Of a stretch of DNA of 41,265 bases, positions 1-41,265 are shown in pieces. Origin of the DNA: a phage. Position numbers and translations under genes: made by a program. How positions within the stretch are numbered: the stretch's first letter is position 1; every line of letters starts with the position of its first letter. The stretch lies in the sequence record NC_107013.1. One strand, 5' to 3'. The notes under the pieces are model-generated. The model ran no database searches, had not been told where the DNA came from, and saw only the letters and a program-made list of their open reading frames with translations.

Positions 1-127
1 GCGTGAAATCGCGGGCCTGGGCTTCATTATCGCTGTTCTCTGGATGCCTATCTATTCCCGCCTCTCCGGTATCGTCGCCGGAGAATACATCGCACGTCGA
101 GGAGGCCCGGATGAATGAATTATTCTG
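1..127. repeat. Terminal direct repeat: 1-127 is identical to 41139-41265 (wrap-around of a circular or terminally redundant genome); carries the 3' end of holin 1 and the start of holin 2
   Basis: Exact identity of the first 127 nt with the last 127 nt, read directly. Confidence 0.9.
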
Positions 128-7117: not shown

Positions 7118-7578
7118 TGATGGGCTTTTTCAAAGTAACTGATGTACCGTCACGTCGCGTAGTCCAGTACGCCCGCGTGTCTGGCTCTGGTGAGAACGTG
7201 GTGTTTATTGATGATGAAAGTGTACTCGGTACACCCGAAGACGATATGCCGTTTGCAGATAAAACCGGTATTGCGTTACCCGCGGCGGGCATGCTTTATG
7301 AAATTCCGTATCTGGCGGATGCAGGTGACGTGTATTTCTCGGTGCAACCGAAAGACACCGAGCTGGTCGACGGTAGCGCCACCATCACCGTCGAAGTTAA
7401 GGCGGGTAAAGCGCCGTGTGTACTGACCTGGTACAAAGACGGCAAGGAAGTGGTAAACGCCCCAGAAGAGGCTTTGTCTCTGACGGTTAATGCTGTCGGT
7501 GAATACTTCGTTAAAGTCACCGATGCCGATGGGGTAGAGGCCGTAAGTAAAGCAGCGAAGGTTACTAAGCCAGAATAA
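7117..7578 (+). CDS. Virion-associated protein with Ig-like C-terminal domain (putative)
   Basis: TAATG coupling to upstream gene; beta-rich C-terminal segment. Confidence 0.4.
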   Translation: MMGFFKVTDVPSRRVVQYARVSGSGENVVFIDDESVLGTPEDDMPFADKTGIALPAAGMLYEIPYLADAGDVYFSVQPKDTELVDGSATITVEVKAGKAPCVLTWYKDGKEVVNAPEEALSLTVNAVGEYFVKVTDADGVEAVSKAAKVTKPE

Positions 7579-7583
7579 ACTGA

Positions 7584-7604
7584 AGCCCCGAAAGGGGCTT
7601 TTTA
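7584..7604 (+). terminator. Rho-independent terminator
   Basis: AGCCCC-GAAA-GGGGCT hairpin followed by TTTTT. Confidence 0.65.
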
Positions 7605-7667: not shown

Positions 7668-7696
7668 TTGACTTTTCACCAAAAATGTGCTAAGCT
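7668..7696 (+). promoter_or_regulatory. Sigma70-like promoter TTGACT-N17-TAAGCT (TG-extended -10), copy 1; overlapped upstream by the 16-bp palindrome AACTATTCGAATAGTT
   Basis: Same -35, -10 and spacer length as the promoter at 38053-38081. Confidence 0.55.
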
Positions 7697-7699
7697 CCA

Positions 7700-7810
7700 C
7701 CTGAGCTTGTGAAGTATGAACAAGCGACCGCGGCGCGGGCAGGTAACGGAGCGGGACGTAAGTCCTGAGTGTAGTTACGCTGACGCGTTCGGAAGGGCCA
7801 TACTCTATTG
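7700..7810 (+). ncRNA. Conserved promoter-proximal element, copy 1 (candidate small RNA or cis-acting leader)
   Basis: 5' 34 nt identical and 3' ~33 nt nearly identical to 38085-38197; conserved GCUUGU/ACAAGC hairpin; no conserved reading frame. Confidence 0.4.
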
Positions 7811-7875
7811 CTTGTGTAAAAAGTAACTGGTTTACTGAGATTACGCCGTTTCTATGTTTAAATGATAAGGACTAG

Positions 7876-7905
7876 CGCCCCGCTTTAAGGCGGGGCTTTA
7901 CTTAT
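7876..7905 (+). terminator. Intrinsic terminator/attenuator downstream of element copy 1
   Basis: GCCCCGC-TTTAAG-GCGGGGC hairpin then TTTACTTAT. Confidence 0.45.
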
Positions 7906-7920
7906 CGAGAAAGGGGAAAC

Positions 7921-8307
7921 ATGAATCTTAAAGCAACTGTCGTAGCGGGAGCATGTTTCATCATCCTGGCTTACGCACACGGCATCTACCAGTATCGCAG
8001 CGGCTGGAACGGAGGCCGGGCGAATCTCGTTTCTCAGCAACAGCAGAAAGCACAGGCTGAGTTAGCTAAGAAAACACAACGGCAGCAGCAGGATGAATCG
8101 AAGGCCGCCGCCGCTGATAACGAAGGCAAGACGAAATCAGAGGTAATCACCCGTGAAGTCGTTAAGTACATTAAAACGCCTGGCCGCAGCGTGTGCACTT
8201 TTGACCCTGAGCGCGTGCAGCTCAAGTCCCGCGCCGTCGCAAACGCCAATTCCATCCCCGGATACGACGATGATGCAGCCGCCGTGCAAACTGGCACTGC
8301 CAAGTAA
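7921..8307 (+). CDS. i-spanin (Rz-like): N-terminal TM, Gln/Ala/Lys-rich predicted helix, periplasmic Cys
   Basis: GAAAGGGG RBS; TM VVAGACFIILAYAHGIY; Rz-like architecture; contains an overlapped lipoprotein gene. Confidence 0.6.
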   Translation: MNLKATVVAGACFIILAYAHGIYQYRSGWNGGRANLVSQQQQKAQAELAKKTQRQQQDESKAAAADNEGKTKSEVITREVVKYIKTPGRSVCTFDPERVQLKSRAVANANSIPGYDDDAAAVQTGTAK

Positions 8308-12716: not shown

Positions 12717-13883
12717 ATGGCTACAACTCCTTTTAAGGGCGCGAATACTGCGCAATTCTATGTGGCAGAAACTACCCCCGGCGTAACACCGACTAACCCG
12801 GTCTGGTCGCCATTGCGTAACACAGGTGGCGTTCCTGCCATTACCCGCGACACGCTGACCTCCAACGAACTGGACGGCAGCCGTGAAACTACGTCAATCC
12901 GCACCGGTAACAAGCAGGTTAGCGGAGAATACGCTATTGAGCTTAGCTCGAAAAGCCAGGACGACTGGCTGGCGGGTGCTTTAGGCTCTACATGGCAATC
13001 CGGTAGTTCTCTGACCGGGCTATCAATTACCGTCGCGCCTGCAGGCAAGACCTTTACCCGTGCCGAAGGTAGCTTTATTTCTGACGGCGTTGAAGTGGGC
13101 GACCTGATTGCGTTTACCGACTTAACCGGTGACAACGCAAAACCGTTTATCGTAACTGCAGTAGAGGCGCTGGTAGTGACCGGGGCGGGTATCCAGCATA
13201 CCCTGACCACAGAGACAGTAACTACCGCCGCTAAGACAGGGGATAAACTGGAAACGGGAAGCCAGTGCAAGACGTTCTCTATTCTCACCTGGTACAAAGG
13301 CCAGTGCGGCGGGACTGACGCGTACACACTAACCAAAGGCGTGGAAGTTTCTGGTTTTACCATCGAACAGGCTGTTAACGCTATGGTAACTGGCAGCTTC
13401 CCGTTCATCGGTCGCAGTCAGGAGATTCTCACCACGCAGCCGTCTGGTTCTGATTTCTCCTCTGTTACGTTTGGTGACGAGCCATTCTCCTCGGTCGATG
13501 TTTCTGTGTTCGACGGTTCTACGCCGTTGCGTTGCGACAGCCTGACCATCACCAACGACAACAGCGCGTCCGCACAGTTCGAACTCGGCAACACTAACGT
13601 AGCGTTTGTGGAGCGTAGCCGAGCAGCTAACACCTTCTCCATCTCCGGTAAGCTGTACGACATGGCGATGATTCAGAAGTTTATCAACGAGCAGCAGGTG
13701 GAGATTAACTCTATTCTGGCTGGGGTAAACGGGGCTATGTCTTTCAGTTTGAAACGTGCAGAACTTACGGCGGTTACACCTGAGATTGGAGGACCTGAGT
13801 CAATCACTCAGTCTATTGAAGGTCAGGCTACTGGCAACCAGTACCAGTCGTCTATTGTTATTCAGCGTATCACATACGCATAA
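12717..13883 (+). CDS. Major tail protein (putative)
   Basis: AGAGG RBS before ATG 12717; Thr/Ser/Gly-rich 389-aa ORF at the expected position. Confidence 0.55.
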   Translation: MATTPFKGANTAQFYVAETTPGVTPTNPVWSPLRNTGGVPAITRDTLTSNELDGSRETTSIRTGNKQVSGEYAIELSSKSQDDWLAGALGSTWQSGSSLTGLSITVAPAGKTFTRAEGSFISDGVEVGDLIAFTDLTGDNAKPFIVTAVEALVVTGAGIQHTLTTETVTTAAKTGDKLETGSQCKTFSILTWYKGQCGGTDAYTLTKGVEVSGFTIEQAVNAMVTGSFPFIGRSQEILTTQPSGSDFSSVTFGDEPFSSVDVSVFDGSTPLRCDSLTITNDNSASAQFELGNTNVAFVERSRAANTFSISGKLYDMAMIQKFINEQQVEINSILAGVNGAMSFSLKRAELTAVTPEIGGPESITQSIEGQATGNQYQSSIVIQRITYA

Positions 13884-13887
13884 AACT

Positions 13888-13912
13888 AAGGCCCCGTTTG
13901 GGGCCTTTTTCT
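13888..13912. terminator. Bidirectional terminator at a convergent junction
   Basis: GGCCCC-GTTT-GGGGCC hairpin flanked by A-run upstream and T-run downstream; near-identical to 26459-26484. Confidence 0.65.
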
Positions 13913-14466
13913 TACAAACCTAATCTTAAAGCAATGCCTATAGCGTTCGATTTAACGTAACCCGGTATGATGTAGGTGTCATAATCTTTTACACCATTAA
14001 TATCGTACAGGTAACCGCGGCTGTCCCCTTCAAACGTATGGCCGTCTCTGTGCAAGCGGACGATTCTCACATCATGCCCCGCGGCAACGATAGGGGCTAC
14101 TTCGCTGGCGAACCCGCCATCAGACACCACAAAAACTTCGTCGCCGTCGGGCAAGTTTCCGGCAAGATACTTACCGAAATAATCATCACCGAATACCGGT
14201 TTAATGAATTGCTCGGAAATGGCAATCATGAACTGACGCCGAGACAACCCGTTAAGGAAACCCTCTGGCTTTTCTTTCCGCGCCCGGTCGTCGTAGCCGT
14301 CGAGAAACTCGCGGTAAGCATCCTGGCCTAACGCAGCCATAGCAATATTGAACATCGGATTCTTGAAACTGGCGACACCCTTCGCAAAGCCCATTTCTAC
14401 CAGCGCCCTAGCAAGTGTGTCTTTCCCGCAGCCCGCAGGACCATTAAGAATAATTACCTTAGCCAT
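13912..14466 (-). CDS. P-loop kinase, dNMP-kinase-like (T4 gp1-type GKDT motif)
   Basis: Walker A NGPAGCGKDT; TAATG coupling to upstream gene. Confidence 0.55.
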   Translation of the reverse strand: MAKVIILNGPAGCGKDTLARALVEMGFAKGVASFKNPMFNIAMAALGQDAYREFLDGYDDRARKEKPEGFLNGLSRRQFMIAISEQFIKPVFGDDYFGKYLAGNLPDGDEVFVVSDGGFASEVAPIVAAGHDVRIVRLHRDGHTFEGDSRGYLYDINGVKDYDTYIIPGYVKSNAIGIALRLGL

Positions 14467-14951
14467 TATTTATCACTCCCATGTGGTTTTAAGTGTGTAG
14501 AGTTCCCGTTACAGTCGTATTCAGTAACTGCGTGAGTGGTTATGCCGAGTTCGCGGAAATGCTTTATTACCGCTGGAGAGTCGTCGAATGCACACAAGAT
14601 TCTCTCCGGCCCAATAGCACGCAACACCTCTTCTTTAATTACGATGTCTTTTCTGTTGTCGTGTTTGCTGCGCATGATTAACTGATAAAATTCGACGCGG
14701 TGGCGCTGCAACCACATTCTGGTTTCTTTTTCCGCGTCATCACTACGGCCTGTTAAGATAATAACGGCATAGCGACGATTAAGGGCGTTACACAGTTCGA
14801 TGTTATCTTTAATGGGTGCATCGTCTTTGCACGCCATGTTAAATGGTTTCCACGCCCAGGTTTCGCCGTAGTTATCTTTCGGCAGCAGGTGTAAACGATG
14901 AGTACCATCTGCCAATGTCCCGTCTAAATCGAAAATCACAATATCTTTCAT
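14466..14951 (-). CDS. HAD-superfamily phosphatase
   Basis: N-terminal FDLDGTL motif; further HAD-like Asp motifs. Confidence 0.65.
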   Translation of the reverse strand: MKDIVIFDLDGTLADGTHRLHLLPKDNYGETWAWKPFNMACKDDAPIKDNIELCNALNRRYAVIILTGRSDDAEKETRMWLQRHRVEFYQLIMRSKHDNRKDIVIKEEVLRAIGPERILCAFDDSPAVIKHFRELGITTHAVTEYDCNGNSTHLKPHGSDK

Positions 14952-16078
14952 CCAAGCATCTCCGGTGAAATAGTTAAACGTGCGACCTCGCCATATTCGG
15001 CGCTATAAGTAATTACGTTTGCACTGCGGCCAGACATCCACCCACCGCGGGAGGCATATGCATCTTTAGCCGCGAGAGTGCGGTGTTGCTCAACAATCAT
15101 GTTACGGCTTTCTACAATCTTTTGGTGGTGCAGGTGACCCACGTGGGCGTAGCTGTAAACACTCTCGCCGAACGCTTTGCGGAACTTGGCGATCATAACC
15201 GGTTCGATAGCGTCGAATCGTGCTTTATGCCCATGATGGAAGAACAGCGTCGTTTTGCCGTGTTGCACCATCTTGTAAACATCCGGCGACGTATCGACGA
15301 ACACACGCGGCTCATTGTCGTACAGCGTACTAAACATCTCAGCTAACCAAATCATTCCGCTTTCGTCGTGGTTACCTTGCACGATAAGCAAGCGAACATT
15401 TTTATGTTTAACGAGAGCCATATCAATGACACGGCGGACCATACGAATCATGTAGCGTACAAGTTTCTGATAGCGGGTGTCAGCGTCAAGAACATGACCA
15501 CTGGCAGGTGTAACGGCGTCCAGACTATCGAAATGCGCAAGGTCGCCCAGCAGATTAATAACTCCTGTTCCGGCATCCGGTGCTTTCTGGAACGCTGCGT
15601 CGAACCAGCGGGAGAACAGGTCTTCCGCAATCTTCATGTCCCAGTCGTCTCCGCTCTCGTCAGCCCAGGCCAGCATACCGAGATGGAAATCAGACACAGT
15701 GTAAAGGTTGAGTAGATTGTCGTCTCGTTTGGCGCGAACGGCTTTAACAGGTGCAACTGGTGTAATCTCCGACTTCATGCCTTCGATTACGGCTTTCATC
15801 AATTCAACCTGACGTTCGGCATCGGTGTCGGTCTTAACCCATTGCAACTTGGTGTTGCCAAACTCATCCACCAGTGATGACGTTCCTTTAATCTTGTAGC
15901 CGTCCGGTACAAGGTAACTAACGTCACGCCCGTGGCCTACACCTTTCTTAGCCAGCTTCGCTTTACGGATACGAATAACGCGGTCGGAGATGCCGTATTT
16001 ACGGGCGATGTCGATATTCTTCATACCGGCGTTCAATTCTTCCTGTAACTGTTCGTCGGTTATTTTCTTCCTGGCCAT
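14948..16078 (-). CDS. Calcineurin-like metallophosphoesterase with N-terminal HTH
   Basis: Motifs DFH, GDLAHFD, GNHDE, HHGH, GHLHH; N-terminal NIDIARKYGISDRVIRIRK. Confidence 0.7.
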   Translation of the reverse strand: MARKKITDEQLQEELNAGMKNIDIARKYGISDRVIRIRKAKLAKKGVGHGRDVSYLVPDGYKIKGTSSLVDEFGNTKLQWVKTDTDAERQVELMKAVIEGMKSEITPVAPVKAVRAKRDDNLLNLYTVSDFHLGMLAWADESGDDWDMKIAEDLFSRWFDAAFQKAPDAGTGVINLLGDLAHFDSLDAVTPASGHVLDADTRYQKLVRYMIRMVRRVIDMALVKHKNVRLLIVQGNHDESGMIWLAEMFSTLYDNEPRVFVDTSPDVYKMVQHGKTTLFFHHGHKARFDAIEPVMIAKFRKAFGESVYSYAHVGHLHHQKIVESRNMIVEQHRTLAAKDAYASRGGWMSGRSANVITYSAEYGEVARLTISPEMLG

Positions 16079-16307: not shown

Positions 16308-16337
16308 TTTAAACCCCTTCATTGTTGGTGTAAGTGA

Positions 16338-16366
16338 ATAGTACCCTATTATATTGGGGTGTGCAA
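16338..16366 (-). promoter_or_regulatory. Class II promoter TTGCAC-N17-TACTAT with conserved spacer, upstream of the Imm-like gene
   Basis: 33-bp near-identity to the plus-strand promoter at 38351-38383. Confidence 0.5.
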
Positions 16367-16381
16367 GTAATGTGATAGAAT
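16354..16381 (+). promoter_or_regulatory. Putative promoter (TTGGGG-N16-TGaTAGAAT) for the tail operon, back-to-back with the minus promoter
   Basis: TG-extended -10; location upstream of the chaperone/tape-measure genes. Confidence 0.3.
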
Positions 16382-20998: not shown

Positions 20999-23488
20999 AT
21001 GCCGATGGAGTTTGTCGTTAGTCGTATCCCTGACGGCGTGCCGGTGCGCGTCTACCTCGGTGAGATTGGCGATGATACAGACGTAACGGACGACTTCGAC
21101 GCGCTTAAAGATGAAGACGCTGTGTACCACATTATTGAGGGTGCGGGTAGCGGGGCGCTCGGTGCGGTTAGTAAGGTGTTTGGTTTTATCCTTAAGCCAA
21201 TCGCCAAGTTGTTTGGCCTGAACACGGCCGCCAACGCCAACTACACGGCGACTAACAACCAGACAACATCACCAAATAACAGCCTCACAGACCGCTCAAA
21301 CAAGCCACGCCCTTACGAGCGCTCCTATGACATCTGCGGGACTGTGCAGACAATCCCTAATGACCTGATGCAGACGTATAAGGCGTTCAACTCCACTGGT
21401 GCTTTGCTGGAGTATTCGTACTATGACGCAGGGCGCGGACATCTGCATATTGAGGCTGATGGCGTCACAGAGGGCGACACCCTGATAAGCGACATCACAG
21501 GTTCATCTGTTGCCGTATATGCGCCGTATACGTCACCGAACAACACCGCATCTCCGCAACTACAAATCGGCGACGTCATTGACCAGAAACTCTATGTGAC
21601 ATACTCCAACGACGACGTTGACGGTATTGTGCTGAAAGCGCCAAACGACATCGGAGCTAACCCAAGCGCCGACGGCACAGCTAAACGTATTTCAAACACT
21701 GGCTACATCTATGATCCGTCAGGCGACTCTGCTTTTTCTGAGTTTCTTAGTGTTGGTGATGTCGCAGTGTTGAGCAATTTCGACGTTAAGGACGTCACTA
21801 ACCTGAACGGCTCGTTTGAAGTTTTATACGTCGACGACTTTGAGGTTCGGTTGTACGTCGGGGATATAGGTAACTGGGGCAACCTTAATAACGGAGAGAC
21901 TTACGCACTTACAGAGCGTTCGGATACGTTTATAGGCCCAAGCAACACCTATGACGTATCTCTTACGGACTGGTATTACATGGTGCGCGGAGAGGTTGAC
22001 CAGGTACTTGCTAACGTTGCCGGGCAGAACGGCCTCTACAAATACGACGGAGGCTATAACCGCACCAGTGTAACGGTGGAACTCCAGTACCAGATGATTG
22101 ATTCTCAGCGTAACCCGTTGAGCGATATTTACACGGTACAGGCCACAATTACAGGCAACAATACGGATTACGTCGGTACGTCTATCTACGGGCAATTGCC
22201 GACCGCGTCCCGTTTCCGCGCCCGTATGCGTCGTGTAACGAATTTTGATAAAGACTACGACGGAACGGTAAGCGACGAGATAACCTTTATCAACCTGTAT
22301 GGGCAGTCACTGGACACTACCTCACATTACGGCAACAGGACAACGGTGCATTGCGCCCGTAAACAGACGCCGCGTGCCGCCAGCATAGACAACCCGGAAC
22401 TGCGCATGATTGCAACCGAGATGTGTTACAAATACCTCGGCAATGGAGTATTCGATACAGTAATGACACCGAACACGCAAGCCGTACAATCTCTAATTCG
22501 ACTGGCGCGCGACCCCGCAGTAGGCAATCTGGAACTGACAACGGCAAACATGGACAAGTTACTTGCTGTGCAAGAAGAGATTGAGTCCTATTTCGGAAGT
22601 GAATTAGCGGGGCAGTTCTGCTACACGTTCGACGACTACGACACCACGATGCAGGACATCGTTCAGACTATAGCGGAAGCCGTGTTCTGTACTGCGTACC
22701 GTAAAGGCGCGGACATTATGCTGCGTTTCGACCGTCCGGTTGCTGGGCCCGAGATGGTGTTCACCCACCGCAGCAAAACTACTGGTACAGAGAAATGGAC
22801 GCGCACATTCAACGATTCTACGACCTACGATAGCCTGTCGTTCTCATACATCGACCCGGATACTAACGTACAGGAAACGATTTATATCCCGGAAGAACTC
22901 GGTGCAAATACGGAGGAATACGAATCGAAGGGCGTGCGCAACTACCGGCAGGCGTACTGGCTTGCGTGGCGTCGATATCAGCGCAATGCGTTAAGTAAAG
23001 TTGTCGTAGAGTTCGAAGCTACTGAAGAAGGTGCGCTCGCTACACCCGGCGGCGTAATCAGCGTGGTTAAAGGTTCACGTATTGCTCCGCAGGATGGTTA
23101 TGTTGTTGCCGTTAATGGGCTTATGCTGACGCTGTCGCAGCCTGTTACGTTTACCCCTGGCGATGACCACTCCATCATTCTTAAGAAGCGCGACGGCTCT
23201 GTGCAGAGTATCTCTGTTATCAAAGGAAGCCACGACCGCGAAGTGATTATGCTTTCTGCCCCAGAGGAAGCAATCTACACAGGGAATAGCGCACTAAAAA
23301 CTGAGTTTTCATTCGGCAACGAAGCAAGGCATAATGCTCAGAAGATAGTTGTTTCTTCAATCGACCCTGGCGACGACCGCACGGTCAAGATTACTGGCTA
23401 CAACTATGACGACGGATTCTACAAATACGACGGCGTCGCGCCATACGGCAGCGGTTTCTCCGACGGATTCAGCAATGGTTTTAATTAA
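20999..23488 (+). CDS. Tail tip / host-specificity protein (J-like central fibre); start ambiguous (TTG 20933 or ATG 20999)
   Basis: ~830-aa ORF after the K-like gene. Confidence 0.6.
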   Translation: MPMEFVVSRIPDGVPVRVYLGEIGDDTDVTDDFDALKDEDAVYHIIEGAGSGALGAVSKVFGFILKPIAKLFGLNTAANANYTATNNQTTSPNNSLTDRSNKPRPYERSYDICGTVQTIPNDLMQTYKAFNSTGALLEYSYYDAGRGHLHIEADGVTEGDTLISDITGSSVAVYAPYTSPNNTASPQLQIGDVIDQKLYVTYSNDDVDGIVLKAPNDIGANPSADGTAKRISNTGYIYDPSGDSAFSEFLSVGDVAVLSNFDVKDVTNLNGSFEVLYVDDFEVRLYVGDIGNWGNLNNGETYALTERSDTFIGPSNTYDVSLTDWYYMVRGEVDQVLANVAGQNGLYKYDGGYNRTSVTVELQYQMIDSQRNPLSDIYTVQATITGNNTDYVGTSIYGQLPTASRFRARMRRVTNFDKDYDGTVSDEITFINLYGQSLDTTSHYGNRTTVHCARKQTPRAASIDNPELRMIATEMCYKYLGNGVFDTVMTPNTQAVQSLIRLARDPAVGNLELTTANMDKLLAVQEEIESYFGSELAGQFCYTFDDYDTTMQDIVQTIAEAVFCTAYRKGADIMLRFDRPVAGPEMVFTHRSKTTGTEKWTRTFNDSTTYDSLSFSYIDPDTNVQETIYIPEELGANTEEYESKGVRNYRQAYWLAWRRYQRNALSKVVVEFEATEEGALATPGGVISVVKGSRIAPQDGYVVAVNGLMLTLSQPVTFTPGDDHSIILKKRDGSVQSISVIKGSHDREVIMLSAPEEAIYTGNSALKTEFSFGNEARHNAQKIVVSSIDPGDDRTVKITGYNYDDGFYKYDGVAPYGSGFSDGFSNGFN

Positions 23489-23500
23489 AGAGGACTCTAT

Positions 23501-26455
23501 ATGTCAAGCGGATGCGGTGACGTTTTAAGCCTGGCGGATTTACAAACCGCCAAGAAACATCAGATTTTCGAGGCCGAGGTTATCACTGGCAAATCCGGCG
23601 GTGTCGCCGGTGGTGCCGATATTGATTACGCGACAAATCAGGTTACTGGACAGACGCAGAAGACACTCCCCGCCGTGTTGCGTGACGCAGGTTTTAAACT
23701 GGCAGATTTTGATTTCACGTCAGGCGGTACACTATCCGCTAACGACCGAAACACCGCAGTTTTGTGGCCGTCGTCCTCTGGCGGTGACGGGGATTGGTAC
23801 TATTGGTTGGGTGCTCTACCAAAAATTATCCCAGCGTCATCTTCTCCGCAGTCCACCGGTGGCGTGGCAGATGGGGCGTGGCAGCCTGTCGGGTCGGTCA
23901 TACTGCGGCAGCAAATATCTGATGTAAACGGCGCAATTCTGTACCCAGATTTACATGTGGCGCGATGGAAGGACGAATACGACCCGCGCGCATGGGGCGC
24001 CGTGGGCGACGGCGTAACTGATGATACTCAATCTATTTTTAATGTATTAGCAGCTTCCCCCAACAATTGGATTATAGACGGCAGGGGTTTGACTTATAAA
24101 GTTTCCCAATTACCTGACATTAGTAAATTTAAGAATGCTGCATTCGTTTACGAGCGCGTAGCCGGGCAACCGCTTACTTATGTAGCTGATGGCTTCTTTA
24201 ACGGCTCACTAACTAAGGTGACGGATACCCCGTTCTACAACGCATGGACGCAGGATAAAACTTTCGTCTACGACCATGTTATTTACGCCCCGTTTATGGC
24301 GGGCGAACGACATGGTGTTCAAAACTTACATGTAGCTTGGGTTCGCTCTGGAGACGACGGGCAGACTTGGTCAATGCCTGAGTGGTTGACTCCAATCCAT
24401 GCTGACTATAATGCTAGTGTTTCTACGGACAGAGTTAACTACCACTGCATGAGCATGGGTACGTGCGGCAACCGATTATATGCAGTTATAGAAACCCGCT
24501 ACTTATCTAATATGCGGATGAAGAAGGCAGAACTTTGGTCACGCCCAATGCCGTATTTTAGACACCCAACCGGCGGAATAACTATTAGTTCTGGCTCCAC
24601 TACTGCTACCATTGTCATAGAAAATCATGGCCTAAAAGCAGGAGATGCGGTTAACTTCTCTAATACATCGGCAACTGGCGTATCGGGTAATATGACGGTT
24701 TCGTCTATAATTAACCGAAATACGTTCACTGTTACGCTCTCAAGACCGGCGAGTTCCACCATAAACAATGCGGGTGTTACCTGGAACTTCGCAACGCGAT
24801 TCTGGGACAGCCCGTGGGAAATTACCGAATTGCCTGGGGTAGCATACTCCACTAACGCTGATTTGTGTGTCACGGAGACACATAGTTTTGCGGTTATAGA
24901 TGATGTTAACTACACTATCGCTGTCGGCTATCACAACGGCGATGTGTCCCCTAGGCGTCTCGGTGTCTTGTATTTTAGTAACGTGTATGACAATCCTGGC
25001 GTATTCGTTCGTCGCACTGTCGCTCAGGCATACGCTGATAACGCTTCTGAGCCGTGCGTGAAAAGCTATGGTGGTGTGTTATACCTTACCACACGCGGCA
25101 CATTACCTACTTCCCCTGGCTCTACACTGGCGATGAGCACCGATTCTGGGCAAAACTGGAGCTACTTGCGATTTCCGAACAATGTACATCACTCCAATCT
25201 TCCGTTCGCTAAAGTAGGTGACTATCTCTACATCTTTGGTACAGAACGTGCCTTTGGTGAGTGGGAAGGTGGCGAGCAGGACAGCCGCTATGAAGGTTCG
25301 TATCCGAGGACCTTTATGTGCAAAGTTAATGTGTCGTCATGGCCTTCATCTTTAGATGATGTTCAGTGGTTTAATATTACCGACCAAATATACCAGGGTC
25401 ATATCGTTAACTCTGCTGTCGGCGTCGGCTCGGTCTGTGTTAAAGATGGCTGGTTGTACTATATCTTTGGTGGGGAAGACTTCTTCTCTCCCTGGAGCAT
25501 AGGGGATAACAGTGCGAAGTTATGGTACAAACATGATGGGCATCCGGCTGACTTATATAGCTACCGGATAAAGATTGAAGACCACCCGTACGTATCACGT
25601 GATTTCAAATACGGAGCAACTCCTAACCGTACAATACCTGTCGCCATGGGGGTAGATGGTGTACGCCATGTAGAAGCACCTTTAACGTTTGACAATGATG
25701 TAAGCGTGTACTCCCTGCATGTAACGGGGCTGGAATACGATGGTACACAACAGTCTGCCGTGCGCGCACGGTTTGATGGTGATTACGGGCTGATTTCAAA
25801 AACAGTCCCCACTAAAACCCCATCGAGTCAAAGACTGATAGTTAGCGGTGGTGATGGTGCATCCAGTTCCGATGGTGCGTTGCTGCAACTGTACGGGGCA
25901 AACCATGCAAAGCCTAACATGGCTATTATGTATGCGTCAGGAGGCTTCTACTCATACAACAATTTTCTTCCTTACTTAGACTCGCAAGTGTCTTTAGGTT
26001 CGGCAGGTAATAGGTGGACTACGGTGTACGCGACCACCGGTACGATAAACACGTCTGATGGTACACTTAAGACGAACAAAGAGGAAATTGAGGGACAACT
26101 CCTTACCGCATGGGAGGATATACATGTAATATCTTTTAAGTGGCTTGAAAGCCTAGCAATCAAGGGTGACACTGCAAGGATACACTTCGGTGTGATAGCC
26201 CAAGATGTGCGAGACATCTTGGTCAACCATGGGCTTATGGAGAAAGATTCTACCGATTGTAAATATGCTTTCTTGTGCTACGACTCAATTGAAGCTGCGT
26301 ATGATATTGATGAAGATGGCCAGACTGTACAAGTATCCCCTCCCGGCGGCAGATGGGGGGTTAGGGCGGACCAGATGTTCTTCATAGAGATTGCCTATCA
26401 GCGTAAGAAGATGCGCGAGTTCGAGAAGAGGCTGGCAGCACTAGAAGATAAATAA
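23501..26455 (+). CDS. Tailspike: endo-N-acetylneuraminidase (endosialidase)-like with C-terminal intramolecular chaperone (peptidase S74) domain
   Basis: Two Asp-box motifs (SGDDGQTW, STDSGQNW); many segments matching my recollection of K1F endosialidase; C-terminal TSDGTLKTNK and ARIHFGVIAQ typical of S74 domains. Confidence 0.8.
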   Translation: MSSGCGDVLSLADLQTAKKHQIFEAEVITGKSGGVAGGADIDYATNQVTGQTQKTLPAVLRDAGFKLADFDFTSGGTLSANDRNTAVLWPSSSGGDGDWYYWLGALPKIIPASSSPQSTGGVADGAWQPVGSVILRQQISDVNGAILYPDLHVARWKDEYDPRAWGAVGDGVTDDTQSIFNVLAASPNNWIIDGRGLTYKVSQLPDISKFKNAAFVYERVAGQPLTYVADGFFNGSLTKVTDTPFYNAWTQDKTFVYDHVIYAPFMAGERHGVQNLHVAWVRSGDDGQTWSMPEWLTPIHADYNASVSTDRVNYHCMSMGTCGNRLYAVIETRYLSNMRMKKAELWSRPMPYFRHPTGGITISSGSTTATIVIENHGLKAGDAVNFSNTSATGVSGNMTVSSIINRNTFTVTLSRPASSTINNAGVTWNFATRFWDSPWEITELPGVAYSTNADLCVTETHSFAVIDDVNYTIAVGYHNGDVSPRRLGVLYFSNVYDNPGVFVRRTVAQAYADNASEPCVKSYGGVLYLTTRGTLPTSPGSTLAMSTDSGQNWSYLRFPNNVHHSNLPFAKVGDYLYIFGTERAFGEWEGGEQDSRYEGSYPRTFMCKVNVSSWPSSLDDVQWFNITDQIYQGHIVNSAVGVGSVCVKDGWLYYIFGGEDFFSPWSIGDNSAKLWYKHDGHPADLYSYRIKIEDHPYVSRDFKYGATPNRTIPVAMGVDGVRHVEAPLTFDNDVSVYSLHVTGLEYDGTQQSAVRARFDGDYGLISKTVPTKTPSSQRLIVSGGDGASSSDGALLQLYGANHAKPNMAIMYASGGFYSYNNFLPYLDSQVSLGSAGNRWTTVYATTGTINTSDGTLKTNKEEIEGQLLTAWEDIHVISFKWLESLAIKGDTARIHFGVIAQDVRDILVNHGLMEKDSTDCKYAFLCYDSIEAAYDIDEDGQTVQVSPPGGRWGVRADQMFFIEIAYQRKKMREFEKRLAALEDK

Positions 26456-26458
26456 AAC

Positions 26459-26484
26459 TAAGGCCCCAAACGGGGCCTTTTCTC
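26459..26484. terminator. Bidirectional terminator at a convergent junction
   Basis: AGGCCCC-AAAC-GGGGCCT hairpin; same stem as 13888-13912 with complementary loop. Confidence 0.65.
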
Positions 26485-26621
26485 TACTCTTCTGATAGCT
26501 TCTCCAGTACAAACGCCAGTTGTGCATTAGCGGCATCCCTCTGTTGTCGTAGTCGTAGAACCTCCTCTTCGAGTTCCTTGATACGTTTTTGCAATGCGGG
26601 AATCGGGGCTATGATGTTCAT
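26484..26621 (-). CDS. Hypothetical small predicted-helical protein (45 aa)
   Basis: ATGA coupling to the helicase stop; below the ORF-track cut-off. Confidence 0.3.
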   Translation of the reverse strand: MNIIAPIPALQKRIKELEEEVLRLRQQRDAANAQLAFVLEKLSEE

Positions 26622-28042
26622 TTCTTACCTCTTCTCTTCATATAATTAAGCAATTCTTCCTGGACCGATTTCTTCTCGTCTGTACGCGCGGCAACAACCT
26701 CGTCAAGAGTGTCTTTAGCGACTATGTGATAAAGGAACACCGGGCGCTCGTGGCCAGCCTGTTTCTGGCGGACCGGGCCTATACGCTCGACAACCTGCAA
26801 ATAGTGCTCAAGATTCCAGCCTTGCGAAATAAACGCCAGATGATGTCCGCCGTCCTGTAAATTCAAACCATGGCCGGCTGACGCGGGGTGCACGCATAGG
26901 ATTTCGATTTCGCCACGGTTCCACGCTTCCATCTGCTTATTGCCCTTCGCGCCTTTTGCAAAAGCCTGCGCCTGCGGGAAGCGCTTGAGGATGCGCTCCA
27001 GTTCGTGCTTGAACTGATAGGCGACTAGTAACGGCGCACCCTGCAACTCCTCGGCAATGGACTCCAGCGCGTCCAGTTTCGTGTCGTGTACTTTCTCCCA
27101 GTCTTTGGTTGCTTCGCCGTCTGGCCCCGATACATATACGGCACCGGACGCAATTTGCAAGCACTTCGACGTCTTCGCCGCAGCGTTAGCAGCTTCCACT
27201 TCCCCGCTCTCAAGTTCCGCGAATAACTTCTCCTCCATATCGATGTACGCCTGACGTGCTTTCTTCGGCAGGTCGATTTCAACCGTAACAATAATCGGCG
27301 CTTCACACCCGAACCACTCAGCGGCGTCAATAGTGAGGCTGATGTCCTTCATCTTCTGGTGAATTTCATTATCCGCGCCAGGACGGGCGTGGTATTCGCG
27401 CGCCATCGCCGACTTTCCTTTCTGTACCGAGTTAAACCAGCGGTCGGTGAATGCCGTGTACGACGACCCCAGGCGCTCACCCGCGTCGATAAACCAGTTC
27501 TGACCCCACAAGTCTTTGAGGCCGTTTGGCGAGGGCGTGCCGGTAAGGTTTATAAAACGCTTAACCTTTCCAAACGCCACCTTACTGAGCGCCTTTGCCC
27601 GCTTGCTACCACCCGAACGGCTGCGGAATGATTTCAGCTTCGTGCTCTCATCGGCAACGATAACCGTAAAAGGCCAGTCATCTTTGCCGTAGTAGTCGAT
27701 CAGCCACTCGATAACTTCGTAGTTCGTGCACACCACGTTAGCATCTGACTCCAGCGCCGCGATGCGGCGCTTCTCTGAACCTGTCGCGTCTACGACACGC
27801 AGACATGGGAAATTCCATTTCTCTTGCTCTGCCGGCCATGTGCCGGACGCAACACGTAAAGGAGCCAGAATTAACACCCGGTCGCCATCATTAAGTTGGC
27901 CGTTGCGGAACAGTCGGTTTAAGACCCACAGTACGCTGCCAGTCTTCCCGGCACCCATACTCGCCCAAATATTACAGCGATGGTGTTGCAACATGAACGA
28001 GGTCATGAGCTTCTGGTACTCGCGCCTTTGAAACTTACTCAT
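26618..28042 (-). CDS. SNF2/DEAD-like superfamily 2 helicase
   Basis: Walker A SMGAGKTGS; DExx box VIVADEST; helicase C-terminal motifs. Confidence 0.8.
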   Translation of the reverse strand: MSKFQRREYQKLMTSFMLQHHRCNIWASMGAGKTGSVLWVLNRLFRNGQLNDGDRVLILAPLRVASGTWPAEQEKWNFPCLRVVDATGSEKRRIAALESDANVVCTNYEVIEWLIDYYGKDDWPFTVIVADESTKLKSFRSRSGGSKRAKALSKVAFGKVKRFINLTGTPSPNGLKDLWGQNWFIDAGERLGSSYTAFTDRWFNSVQKGKSAMAREYHARPGADNEIHQKMKDISLTIDAAEWFGCEAPIIVTVEIDLPKKARQAYIDMEEKLFAELESGEVEAANAAAKTSKCLQIASGAVYVSGPDGEATKDWEKVHDTKLDALESIAEELQGAPLLVAYQFKHELERILKRFPQAQAFAKGAKGNKQMEAWNRGEIEILCVHPASAGHGLNLQDGGHHLAFISQGWNLEHYLQVVERIGPVRQKQAGHERPVFLYHIVAKDTLDEVVAARTDEKKSVQEELLNYMKRRGKK

Positions 28043-28859
28043 TTATGGTCCCCATAAACGCCTTTATAAATTCGGCGGCTACTTGCGGGACGATGGCATT
28101 GCCGTAACCGCGCAATCGTCCCACTCTTGCGGGTATCCCATTAGCCAGCGGGAATGCGCCGGGTTCAACCGGCCGGAACTTTCCATCACGGCATCCGAGC
28201 CAGTCAGCATCTGACCAGAAGCCGTGGTGCGGGTTGGTTGACTCGCTTTCAATCCCTGCTCTGTTGAGTAGTCCAGCCTGTCGAATGTTCTGTCCCTCCC
28301 GTCCGTGCGAATCACTGTCTCTCCGCTCCCTCTGAAGTCGTTCGCTGTCGGTGTAGGCCAGTTCGTGCGCGCCAAAGAAGAGTCGTTCTCTTTTGTGCGG
28401 TGCGCCGACGCTACAAGCTGGGAGTACAGCAAACCCGACGGCGTAGTCTTCTCCTTCCAGGTGAGCTTGTAAATCGCACATCCACGATTTTGCAATTGCT
28501 GCTGCAACCTGCTCCCCAAAGATGACCGGAGGGCGGCACTCGCTGATGATGTCGAGGAAGACCGGCGCGAGGTGTCTCGGGTCGAACTGTCCGAGTTGTT
28601 TTCCTGCCGTGCTAAACGGTTGGCAAGGCGGGCTTCCCGTCCAGAGAGGCGTATCCTCCGAAACTCCCGCAAGTCTGAGCGCGAGAGGCCAGCCGCCGAT
28701 ACCAGCGAAAAAATGACACTGGGTGAACCCGTCAAGGTCTTCTGGCTTAACTTCGGTAATGCTTCTTTCATCTACAACTCCAAAAGGTATGTGACCATGT
28801 TTTATTAATTCACGCAGCCACGCGGCTGCGCCTTTATCCCATTCGTTGTAATAGTTCAT
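28035..28859 (-). CDS. DNA (cytosine-5)-methyltransferase
   Basis: Motif I FFAGIGG, motif IV PPCQPFS; other C5-MTase blocks. Confidence 0.8.
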
Positions 28860-29077: not shown

Positions 29078-29362
29078 CTAACTATAATAGCTAGCTATTA
29101 GGTCGTCAACCTGTTTAAACGAACCAACGACAAAAACATTTGCACCGCGTTTACGCATACGCTCATGCTCTCGTAACTGGTGCGGGTCAGGCTTCGTGTT
29201 TTCGTCTTTCTTAACCTCGATAAACCAGACGATGCCGCCGGGGAGAATTACCAGTAGGTCTGGAGCGCCGGAACGCCCCTCATAAGACAGTTTACGAACG
29301 AGGCCGCCAATGGCCTCGAATCGCTCTTTCGCGTATTTCTGAATCTTGCCTTCCGGGGTCAT
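29078..29362 (-). CDS. VRR-NUC domain nuclease (PD-(D/E)xK)
   Basis: Motif PDLLVI...IEVK; ATG at 29362. Confidence 0.6.
   Translation of the reverse strand: MTPEGKIQKYAKERFEAIGGLVRKLSYEGRSGAPDLLVILPGGIVWFIEVKKDENTKPDPHQLREHERMRKRGANVFVVGSFKQVDDLIASYYS
29081..29109 (-). promoter_or_regulatory. Class I early promoter TTGACG-N17-TATAGT with palindromic operator AATAGCTAGCTATT in the spacer
   Basis: About 20-bp shared core with promoters at 32635-32663 and 34772-34801. Confidence 0.5.
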
Positions 29363-32581: not shown

Positions 32582-32634
32582 CGTGATTTCTCGCTTTTCA
32601 GTTTACTCCGGGAACTGCCCGGCCAGTGATTAGA

Positions 32635-32663
32635 ACTATAATAGCTAACTATTCAGGTGTCAA
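32635..32663 (-). promoter_or_regulatory. Class I early promoter TTGACA-N17-TATAGT with AATAG-N4-CTATT operator
   Basis: Core AACTATAATAGCTAACTATT identical to 34772-34791. Confidence 0.5.
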
Positions 32664-32667
32664 CACT

Positions 32668-34740: not shown

Positions 34741-34771
34741 TTGTTTCTCTCCTCTCGTTTGGTATATGCTA

Positions 34772-34801
34772 ACTATAATAGCTAACTATTCATGTTGTCA
34801 A
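34772..34801 (-). promoter_or_regulatory. Class I early promoter with AATAG-N4-CTATT operator (18-bp spacer variant)
   Basis: Core AACTATAATAGCTAACTATT identical to 32636-32655. Confidence 0.5.
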
Positions 34802-38052: not shown

Positions 38053-38081
38053 TTGACTTTTACTGAGAAATATGGTAAGCT
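38053..38081 (+). promoter_or_regulatory. Sigma70-like promoter TTGACT-N17-TAAGCT (TG-extended -10), copy 2
   Basis: Same -35/-10/spacer as 7668-7696. Confidence 0.55.
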
Positions 38082-38084
38082 CGT

Positions 38085-38197
38085 CCTGAGCTTGTGAAGT
38101 ATGAACAAGCGACCGCGGTGCGCGGCAGGCGAAACGAGCACGTCTCGACGTGTGGAGTGAGTCTCGCTGACGCATTCGGAAGGGCCATAGTCTATTG
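38085..38197 (+). ncRNA. Conserved promoter-proximal element, copy 2 (candidate small RNA or cis-acting leader)
   Basis: Paralogue of 7700-7810 with identical 5' 34 nt and conserved 3' block. Confidence 0.4.
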
Positions 38198-38268
38198 TAA
38201 TTCCCGCCTAAATATCTAAGTTACTGATTTGCCGTGGGTTATATCCGCAAGCTCACTCACTCACTCTT

Positions 38269-38302
38269 GGTGCCTTCGGCACCACGTTCGTTTCGTTTCG
38301 CT
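38269..38302 (+). terminator. Intrinsic terminator downstream of element copy 2
   Basis: GGTGCC-TTCG-GGCACC tetraloop hairpin then T-rich tract. Confidence 0.45.
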
Positions 38303-38350
38303 CGCTATCCCATTAAACTAAAGAACCACAACGGCAACGTAACTAATCTC

Positions 38351-38379
38351 TTGCACGCCCCAACATAATAGGATACTAT
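38351..38379 (+). promoter_or_regulatory. Class II promoter TTGCAC-N17-TACTAT with conserved spacer
   Basis: 33-bp near-identity with minus-strand promoter at 16338-16366. Confidence 0.5.
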
Positions 38380-38413
38380 TCACTTATCGAAACGAGACAG
38401 AGGAGTGAGGGTT

Positions 38414-39634: not shown

Positions 39635-39641
39635 AATTTAC

Positions 39642-39670
39642 TTGCACACTAAGATAGAATAAGCTACTAT
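39642..39670 (+). promoter_or_regulatory. Promoter TTGCAC-N17-TACTAT (class II-like hexamers, divergent spacer)
   Basis: Hexamers and spacing. Confidence 0.4.
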
Positions 39671-39700
39671 TCATTTACACAAGCGAGAGGAGAGACAGAG

Positions 39701-40947: not shown

Positions 40948-41256
40948 TTGGATAAATTTACTGAAACAGTGACAGGCTGGCTTCTCGCTGCCGCACTAGC
41001 CGGAGGGGTCATCGGCCTACGACAACATAAGTCCGTTATTTCTGGCCCTATCGACGGCTTTTGCTTCATTGCAACTGGCTTCACTTGCGCCGTATTTGGT
41101 GCGCCTCTCGCGGCTCAATGGTTCGGTATTACCGGTGAGCGTGAAATCGCGGGCCTGGGCTTCATTATCGCTGTTCTCTGGATGCCTATCTATTCCCGCC
41201 TCTCCGGTATCGTCGCCGGAGAATACATCGCACGTCGAGGAGGCCCGGATGAATGA
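40948..41256 (+). CDS. Holin (about 3 predicted TM segments), TTG start
   Basis: GGAGG RBS 7 nt before TTG; three hydrophobic segments; immediately upstream of holin 2 and endolysin across the wrap-around. Confidence 0.6.
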   Translation: MDKFTETVTGWLLAAALAGGVIGLRQHKSVISGPIDGFCFIATGFTCAVFGAPLAAQWFGITGEREIAGLGFIIAVLWMPIYSRLSGIVAGEYIARRGGPDE

Positions 41257-41265
41257 ATTATTCTG

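Follow-up and report, generated by a model that had tools for sequence, protein, structure and literature searches.

Several siphophages of Escherichia coli K1 have been described whose tailspike is an endosialidase (endo-N-acetylneuraminidase), and in the literature this enzyme is held to determine the K1 dependence of these near-identical phages. The recombinant K1H depolymerase runs at 93 kDa 'after proteolysis', behaves mostly as a trimer in size-exclusion chromatography and breaks down purified K1 capsule, its specific activity being similar to that of the K1E and K1F enzymes; the purified enzyme has also been used therapeutically in mice. The protein encoded by open reading frame (ORF) 40 of phage JSSK01 removes the capsule from K1 cells, agglutinates K1 E. 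coli only and was located by immunogold labelling at the distal ends of phage tails, and the JSSK01 literature contains an equivalent domain analysis. K1G ORF27 is already annotated as 'tailspike 63D sialidase', the 63D enzyme itself being attributed, in papers that cite it, to Machida et al. 2000. Here, we examined the corresponding gene in a phage DNA stretch of 41,265 nucleotides (nt; NC_107013.1, the whole of which is referred to below as the window). From its sequence, this gene almost certainly encodes the tailspike of a K1-dependent Kagunavirus, i.e. a siphophage of the K1G/K1H/63D type. Such a tailspike is already known, and recognising it here is a correct annotation rather than a discovery; since near-identical orthologues have already been described as regards protein, fold, processing and specificity, current understanding is unchanged.

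The ORF of 984 amino acids (aa) has exactly the coordinates and strand given in an earlier note on this DNA (the original prediction), and all eight peptide strings quoted there are found in the protein (Table 1), which belongs to PHROG 1171 ('tail spike protein', E=1.5e-290). It starts 12 nt past the stop codon of the gene for a tail protein of 851 aa, and the TAA of that gene (23486-23488) is overlapped by the ribosome-binding site AAAGAGGA; the 63D record carries a ribosome-binding site annotation at the equivalent place. The gene lies right after the large tail-tip protein gene and ahead of a terminator.

To identify relatives, the tailspike gene was compared with GenBank phages by megablast, and records covering at least 80% of the gene were counted. 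Twenty records matched at 95.5-99.2% nt identity, all of them E. coli Kagunavirus siphophages, including K1G, K1H, 'Phage #D' (63D endo-N-acetylneuraminidase gene, AB015437), JSSK01 (ORF40 gene, 96.1% nt identity), ULINTec2 and the Smith-and-Huggins K1 phages L, P and G. At the protein level, identity reached 99.5% with K1G ORF27, 97.8% with 63D and 97.3% with K1H, and was 51.2% with K1F. K1G ORF27, K1H ORF24 and 63D (BAA32990) share with the present protein the length of 984 aa, the domain order and the genomic position, and differ from it by 5-27 scattered substitutions. The phages carrying orthologues at 96-99.5% were isolated on O18:K1:H7 or K1 hosts; together with the stripping or degradation of K1 capsule by the JSSK01 and K1H proteins, this supports the K1 specificity that had been predicted, which the present tailspike would share by homology. 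Similarity extends to the whole genome. The window is 93-97% identical at the nt level, over 76-99% and in both halves, to P AB-2017, fTaEco01/03, fKuEco01, K1H and K1G, and its gene neighbourhood is K1G-like (tape measure, small tail proteins, large tail protein, tailspike and a converging helicase operon); whole-genome similarity and synteny both place it in the K1-dependent group of Kagunavirus (Guernseyvirinae).

For structural comparison, PDB chains were searched with phmmer, domains were assigned with Pfam, and K1F residues were mapped through an alignment to full-length K1F gp17. The alignment to known endosialidase structures, which the original prediction had put forward as a check, gave E=0 over aa 166-851 for 4HIZ, identified as the endosialidase gp143 of phage phi92 (682 residues aligned, 79.2% of them identical), E~1e-228 for the K1F endosialidase structures (3GVL, 1.3e-228; 1V0E; others) and E=8e-55 over aa 756-984 for the K1F C-terminal chaperone structure 3GW6. 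Given these values and that of End_beta_propel (E=2.3e-223), the likeness to endosialidases is far beyond chance. All four Pfam endosialidase domains (PF12218, PF12217, PF12195 and PF12219) scored far above their cut-offs, and the protein has the architecture of GH58 phage endosialidases, i.e. an N-terminal extension, a six-bladed propeller with an inserted barrel and a stalk, aligned end to end with 4HIZ and K1F. These domains, the 79% identity to the phi92 enzyme and the retained catalytic residues (see below) bear out the endosialidase identity. The C-terminal domain is homologous to the chaperone domain of the K1F enzyme (endoNF), which makes the protein a member of the peptidase S74 family of intramolecular chaperones (ICA); in the PDB search this domain also matched the chaperone domains of the GA-1 neck appendage and of the T5 L-shaped tail fibre.

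Table 1. Coordinates of the tailspike gene, of the domains and motifs of its product, and of other elements of the window
Feature	Residues (aa)	Nucleotides	Strand	Basis or remark
Ribosome-binding site AAAGAGGA		23487..23494	+	Read from sequence; 6 nt between its end and ATG
Tailspike endosialidase (endo-N-acetylneuraminidase) gene	984 aa	23501..26455	+	ORF list; ATG start, TAA stop
N-terminal virion-anchor module	1-~138	23501..23914	+	Common to Guernseyvirinae tailspikes with unrelated enzymatic heads
Tail_spike_N, PF18668	97-131	23789-23893	+	Pfam E=1e-13
String ILYPDLHVARW	from 146			Quoted in the original prediction
Endosialidase N-terminal extension, End_N_terminal PF12218	167-233	23999..24199	+	Pfam E=1e-37; aligns to 4HIZ and K1F
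String GDGVTDD	from 169			Quoted in the original prediction
String TYKVSQLPDIS	from 198			Quoted in the original prediction
Six-bladed beta-propeller, catalytic, End_beta_propel PF12217	234-693	24200..25579	+	Pfam E=2.3e-223
Asp-box SGDDGQTW (quoted string)	283-290	24347-24370	+	Pattern search
Beta-barrel inserted in propeller, End_beta_barrel PF12195	351-433	24551-24799	+	Pfam E=1.2e-40
Asp-box STDSGQNW (quoted string)	546-553	25136-25159	+	Pattern search
String NITDQIYQG	from 625			Quoted in the original prediction
Stalk, End_tail_spike PF12219	694-851	25580..26053	+	Pfam E=1.5e-73
Predicted autocleavage centre SDGTLK (quoted string)	from 852	26054..26071	+	S852 and K857 align to K1F S911 and K916
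Peptidase_S74, PF13884	852-912		+	Pfam E=8e-13
C-terminal intramolecular chaperone domain	853-984	26057..26452	+	~15 kDa; Peptidase_S74 and 3GW6 match
String ARIHFGVIAQ	from 892			Quoted in the original prediction
GC-rich hairpin AAGGCCCC-AAAC-GGGGCCTT		26460..26479	.	Terminator scan; starts 5 nt past the tailspike stop (4 nt between)
Ultraconserved non-coding element, copy A		7668-7925	+	RNA candidate 7700-7811
Ultraconserved non-coding element, copy B		38053-38330	+	RNA candidate 38085-38198

Among the proteins of solved structure, gp143 of the myophage phi92 is the nearest, its 79.2% identity covering the N-terminal extension, propeller, barrel and stalk; its own short N-terminal attachment region differs and is suited to a myovirus baseplate. 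The podophage K1F gp17 (endoNF; 1V0E, 3GVL and 3GW6) shares fold, mechanism, catalytic residues, Asp-boxes and Ser-Lys dyad with the present tailspike, and has a T7-gp17-type N-terminus whose first ~170 residues are without counterpart here. K1F, named in the original prediction as the relative, is thus a true homologue of the same fold but a distant one (51%), the closest relatives being 63D, K1G, K1H and phi92. Of the eight quoted peptide strings, SGDDGQTW, GDGVTDD, NITDQIYQG and ARIHFGVIAQ are exact in K1F, whereas the other four have near-matches there (e.g. SRDIGQTW and SNGERK).

Searching the protein for the S-x-D-x-G-x-x-W pattern returned exactly two matches, i.e. the two sialidase Asp-boxes that had been pointed out, and in the alignment both coincide with their K1F counterparts (positions 362 and 610). 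According to a preprint on deep mutational scanning of the K1F enzyme, H350, R549, E581, R596 and R647 are key catalytic residues and highly intolerant of substitution. In the alignment they correspond to H271, R485, E517, R532 and R583 of the present protein, with full conservation (5/5). This conservation bears on whether the spike might be a catalytically inactive receptor protein that only binds polysialic acid and thereby adsorbs the phage. Inactive endosialidase mutants are known to keep their binding ability, and there is no specific support for a binding-only spike. The five retained catalytic residues, as well as the activity of the 97%-identical K1H enzyme and of the JSSK01 orthologue (96.1% nt identity), speak against such a protein, which we regard as extremely improbable.

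The catalytic region is much closer to phi92 gp143 (79.2%) than to K1F (about 55-58%), and phi92 gp143 has been reported to hydrolyse both alpha-2,8- and alpha-2,9-linked polysialic acid. By analogy, the present enzyme might be a bifunctional, non-processive endosialidase cleaving alpha-2,9 as well as alpha-2,8 linkages, and the host range might reach beyond K1 (K92). The stalk residues speak on both sides. R778, S789 and L794 occupy the positions of K1F R837, S848 and Q853; at the Q853 position, a stalk binding-site residue in K1F, L794 is shared with the bifunctional phi92 enzyme, whereas S789 is K1F-like (S848), phi92 having T there. Moreover, 79% identity to phi92 leaves room for another regioselectivity, and the near-identical phages were all obtained with K1 hosts, K1 dependence being described for them. 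We therefore consider bifunctionality unlikely, although it is the only rival explanation with real probability, and it is compatible with a K1 endosialidase tailspike rather than exclusive of it. If alpha-2,9 activity were present, K1-dependent Kagunaviruses could also attack K92-type polysialic acid capsules.

Three positions of the stalk (776, 804 and 807; nt 25826-25921) flank R778 and differ from all three close orthologues (S776 versus A/G/R, K804 versus T/M/T and M807 versus R/R/R). These variable positions next to R778 might tune substrate binding.

A self-cleaving C-terminal chaperone with an SDGTLK motif had also been predicted, and this fits the Peptidase_S74 domain found from that motif onwards. 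In K1F endoNF, autocleavage is effected by the Ser-Lys dyad S911/K916 and requires R897; all three residues are kept, as R838, S852 and K857 align to K1F R897, S911 and K916. By this alignment, S852 is the predicted nucleophile and the final residue of the mature spike, and K857 the predicted general base; the 4HIZ chain terminates at the residue that pairs with T851. By prediction, the precursor weighs 108.2 kDa, of which residues 1-852 make up 93.0 kDa and the released domain 15.1 kDa. Cleavage after S852 fits, because the mass of residues 1-852 matches the 93 kDa seen for the 97.3%-identical K1H enzyme, and the present tailspike is accordingly predicted, by homology, to process itself in the same way. 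As to the number of chains, the mature spike might be a homotetramer instead of the canonical trimer, since Machida et al. 2000 are cited as having characterised the 63D enzyme as a tetramer. The K1H enzyme, mostly trimeric by size exclusion, argues for the trimer, as do 4HIZ (three chains), the K1F structures and the S74 chaperone mechanism, all of which are trimeric; we hold a tetramer to be very unlikely.

The N-terminal part of the protein follows another lineage. Over aa 1-138 it has 72% identity with the tailspike of the Salmonella Jerseyvirus Ent2, and over aa 1-147 it has 68% identity with that of K1ind3, whose C-terminus is annotated as HK620-Tsp-like, with no similarity further on (BLASTP); this is the N-terminal anchor of the Guernseyvirinae tailspikes. 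K1ind3 and Ent2 thus share the anchor and its locus with the present gene and are unrelated to it in everything past ~aa 140. As the sequence past this point is unrelated among Guernseyvirinae tailspikes, the receptor-destroying domain has been exchanged as a cassette. With the enzyme of the phi92-like myophage PNJ1809-36, the alignment (74%) begins at aa 133 and runs to the C-terminus, and from these similarity limits (138-147 on one side, 133 on the other) the exchange junction lies at ~aa 133-147, just past Tail_spike_N, a domain of wide distribution.

With respect to K1F, the full-length BLASTP high-scoring segment pair spans aa 6-984. Taken alone, aa 1-89 gave only an out-of-register match of 18 residues (E=0.007), and the idea that the entire N-terminus is K1F-like was rejected on these grounds. 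K1F-type homology begins at ~aa 88 (LW..DGD.Y.W.G.LPK..), and aa 88-165 have a match (E=2.8e-21) in PDB entry 9VVR, which holds a K1F-like tail spike. The distinct N-terminus of ~230 residues of the original prediction was therefore abandoned: only ~88 aa are unlike K1F, and two of the strings quoted as K1F-like, at aa 146 and 169, fall inside the region claimed to be distinct. The accompanying idea, i.e. that the N-terminus adapts the enzyme to a siphovirus tail, was right in kind, the adapter being a lineage-specific module of aa 1-~138 and not ~230 residues. In K1H, eight of the 27 differences cluster at aa 109-142, close to the module junction. The GC content is 0.458-0.479 in the enzymatic cassette, 0.548 in the anchor and 0.511 in the remaining genome. 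As 2.5-kb windows elsewhere in the genome span 0.447-0.540 (standard deviation 0.019), GC content was not retained as evidence of a horizontal acquisition of the cassette, for which it is weakly suggestive.

From these relatives, we infer the activity, cleavage, trimeric state and tail location of the present tailspike, and propose the following working. Three chains would fold into a trimer, with the C-terminal domain (aa 853-984) nucleating trimerisation and stalk folding as its homology to endoNF suggests. After correct folding of the stalk, the S852-K857 dyad would, with the help of R838, cut after S852 and free the ~15 kDa chaperone, leaving a stable mature subunit of ~93 kDa. The N-terminal ~138 residues may dock the spike on the distal tail structure common to Guernseyvirinae, in agreement with the siphovirus tail location that had been predicted and with the immunogold labelling of JSSK01. 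The beta-propeller (H271, R485, E517, R532 and R583) would then hydrolyse the alpha-2,8-linked polysialic acid of the E. coli K1 capsule; such hydrolysis would let the virion tunnel to the outer membrane, and productive infection would therefore be K1-capsule-dependent.

The sequence holds nothing that contradicts a K1 endosialidase tailspike. Three caveats apply: the protein differs from K1G ORF27 at five positions (R415S, S776A, K804T, M807R and D919S), none of them a catalytic or cleavage residue, and the experimental evidence comes from relatives; the oligomeric state differs between reports, the 63D enzyme being a tetramer according to citations of Machida et al. and K1H behaving as a trimer; and, because phi92 gp143 also cleaves alpha-2,9 linkages, specificity might be slightly broader than K1.

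On the practical side, the analysis supports a K1-capsule-dependent Kagunavirus and gives exact coordinates for the domains, the catalytic residues and the cleavage site. Phages of this kind have already been studied with a view to treating K1 E. coli (neonatal meningitis, sepsis and avian pathogenic E. coli, APEC) by phage or depolymerase. A subfamily anchor of ~138 aa combined with an exchangeable enzymatic head offers a useful template when host range is to be engineered, a modular picture that is itself already established.

Regarding the genome as a whole, an exact direct repeat of 127 nt was observed at the ends of the window (1-127 and 41139-41265), giving a unit length of 41138 bp. The simplest explanation is that the assembler left an overlap at the ends of a circular or circularly permuted genome, and the window would therefore be a complete, circularly assembled Kagunavirus genome. 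Downstream of the tailspike, a 45-aa ORF (MNIIAPIPALQKRIKELEEEVLRLRQQRDAANAQLAFVLEKLSEE; 26484-26621, - strand) lies between the tailspike terminator and the helicase gene, with a 4-nt overlap with the helicase stop; K1G has a different ORF there (ORF28, 61 aa), the window being ~182 nt shorter at this place. Two further long ORFs (28035-28859 and 28079-28771) overlap on the - strand in different frames. K1G annotates both, as 'C-specific methylase' and 'Mte8-like protein', and one of the two is probably spurious.

A non-coding element present twice in the window (copies A and B, Table 1) is potentially more interesting than the tailspike. Each copy consists, in order, of an extended -10 sigma-70-type promoter (TTGACT, 17 nt, TGnTAAGCT), a structured RNA candidate of ~110 nt predicted to fold into a conserved hairpin and a long irregular hairpin, and a terminator-like hairpin, followed by the next genes. 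Copy A lies ahead of the spanin, scaffold and capsid genes, and copy B ahead of small genes clustered in rightward orientation. In 179 Guernseyvirinae records, Salmonella Jerseyviruses included, copy A is found with 95-100% identity; in Salmonella phage S102, it is 99-100% identical, whereas the flanking genes are 74-77% identical or unalignable. The predicted long hairpin is supported by compensatory base changes among four sequence types of the element (e.g. one pair C-G/U-A/A-U, others A-U/G-C and G-C/C-G). Tiny ORFs are annotated on the element inconsistently between records.

Across the window, Rfam returned no match at the gathering threshold, copy A having one weak, chance-level match below threshold (E<=1), and no tRNAs were found. 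The layout (promoter, structured RNA, terminator and operon, twice per genome) is reminiscent of the processive antiterminator RNAs putL/putR of HK022. Identity with put RNAs was not adopted and the element was not classed as such, because a search with a covariance model built from the element recovered just its two copies in the window, with no match at the HK022 put sites. The element could be a processive antiterminator-like leader or, equally possibly, a stand-alone phage small RNA.

Concerning other repeats, the GC-rich hairpin that follows the tailspike gene is probably an intrinsic terminator acting in both directions where the tail and helicase operons converge. GC-rich hairpins of nearly the same sequence (AAGGCCCC-loop-GGGGCCTT, then a T-run) occur at 7574-7603, 13880-13909 and 26452-26481, at the ends of structural gene blocks, the post-tailspike copy having the same stem as the 13880 copy with the loop inverted; this family probably represents intrinsic or bidirectional terminators. 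A partly palindromic motif of 25-31 nt, AACTATAATAGCTA(A/G)CTATT..., is found three times in the leftward replication module (29080-29110, 32634-32664 and 34771-34795) and could correspond to promoters or operator sites for minus-strand genes. Finally, an element of ~40 nt with TTGCAC-17-TACTAT, resembling sigma-70 promoters by eye, also occurs three times: the copy at 16328-16370 (-) faces left ahead of the minus-strand genes 13912-16078, and those at 38350-38386 (+) and 39638-39680 (+) face right in the small-gene region.

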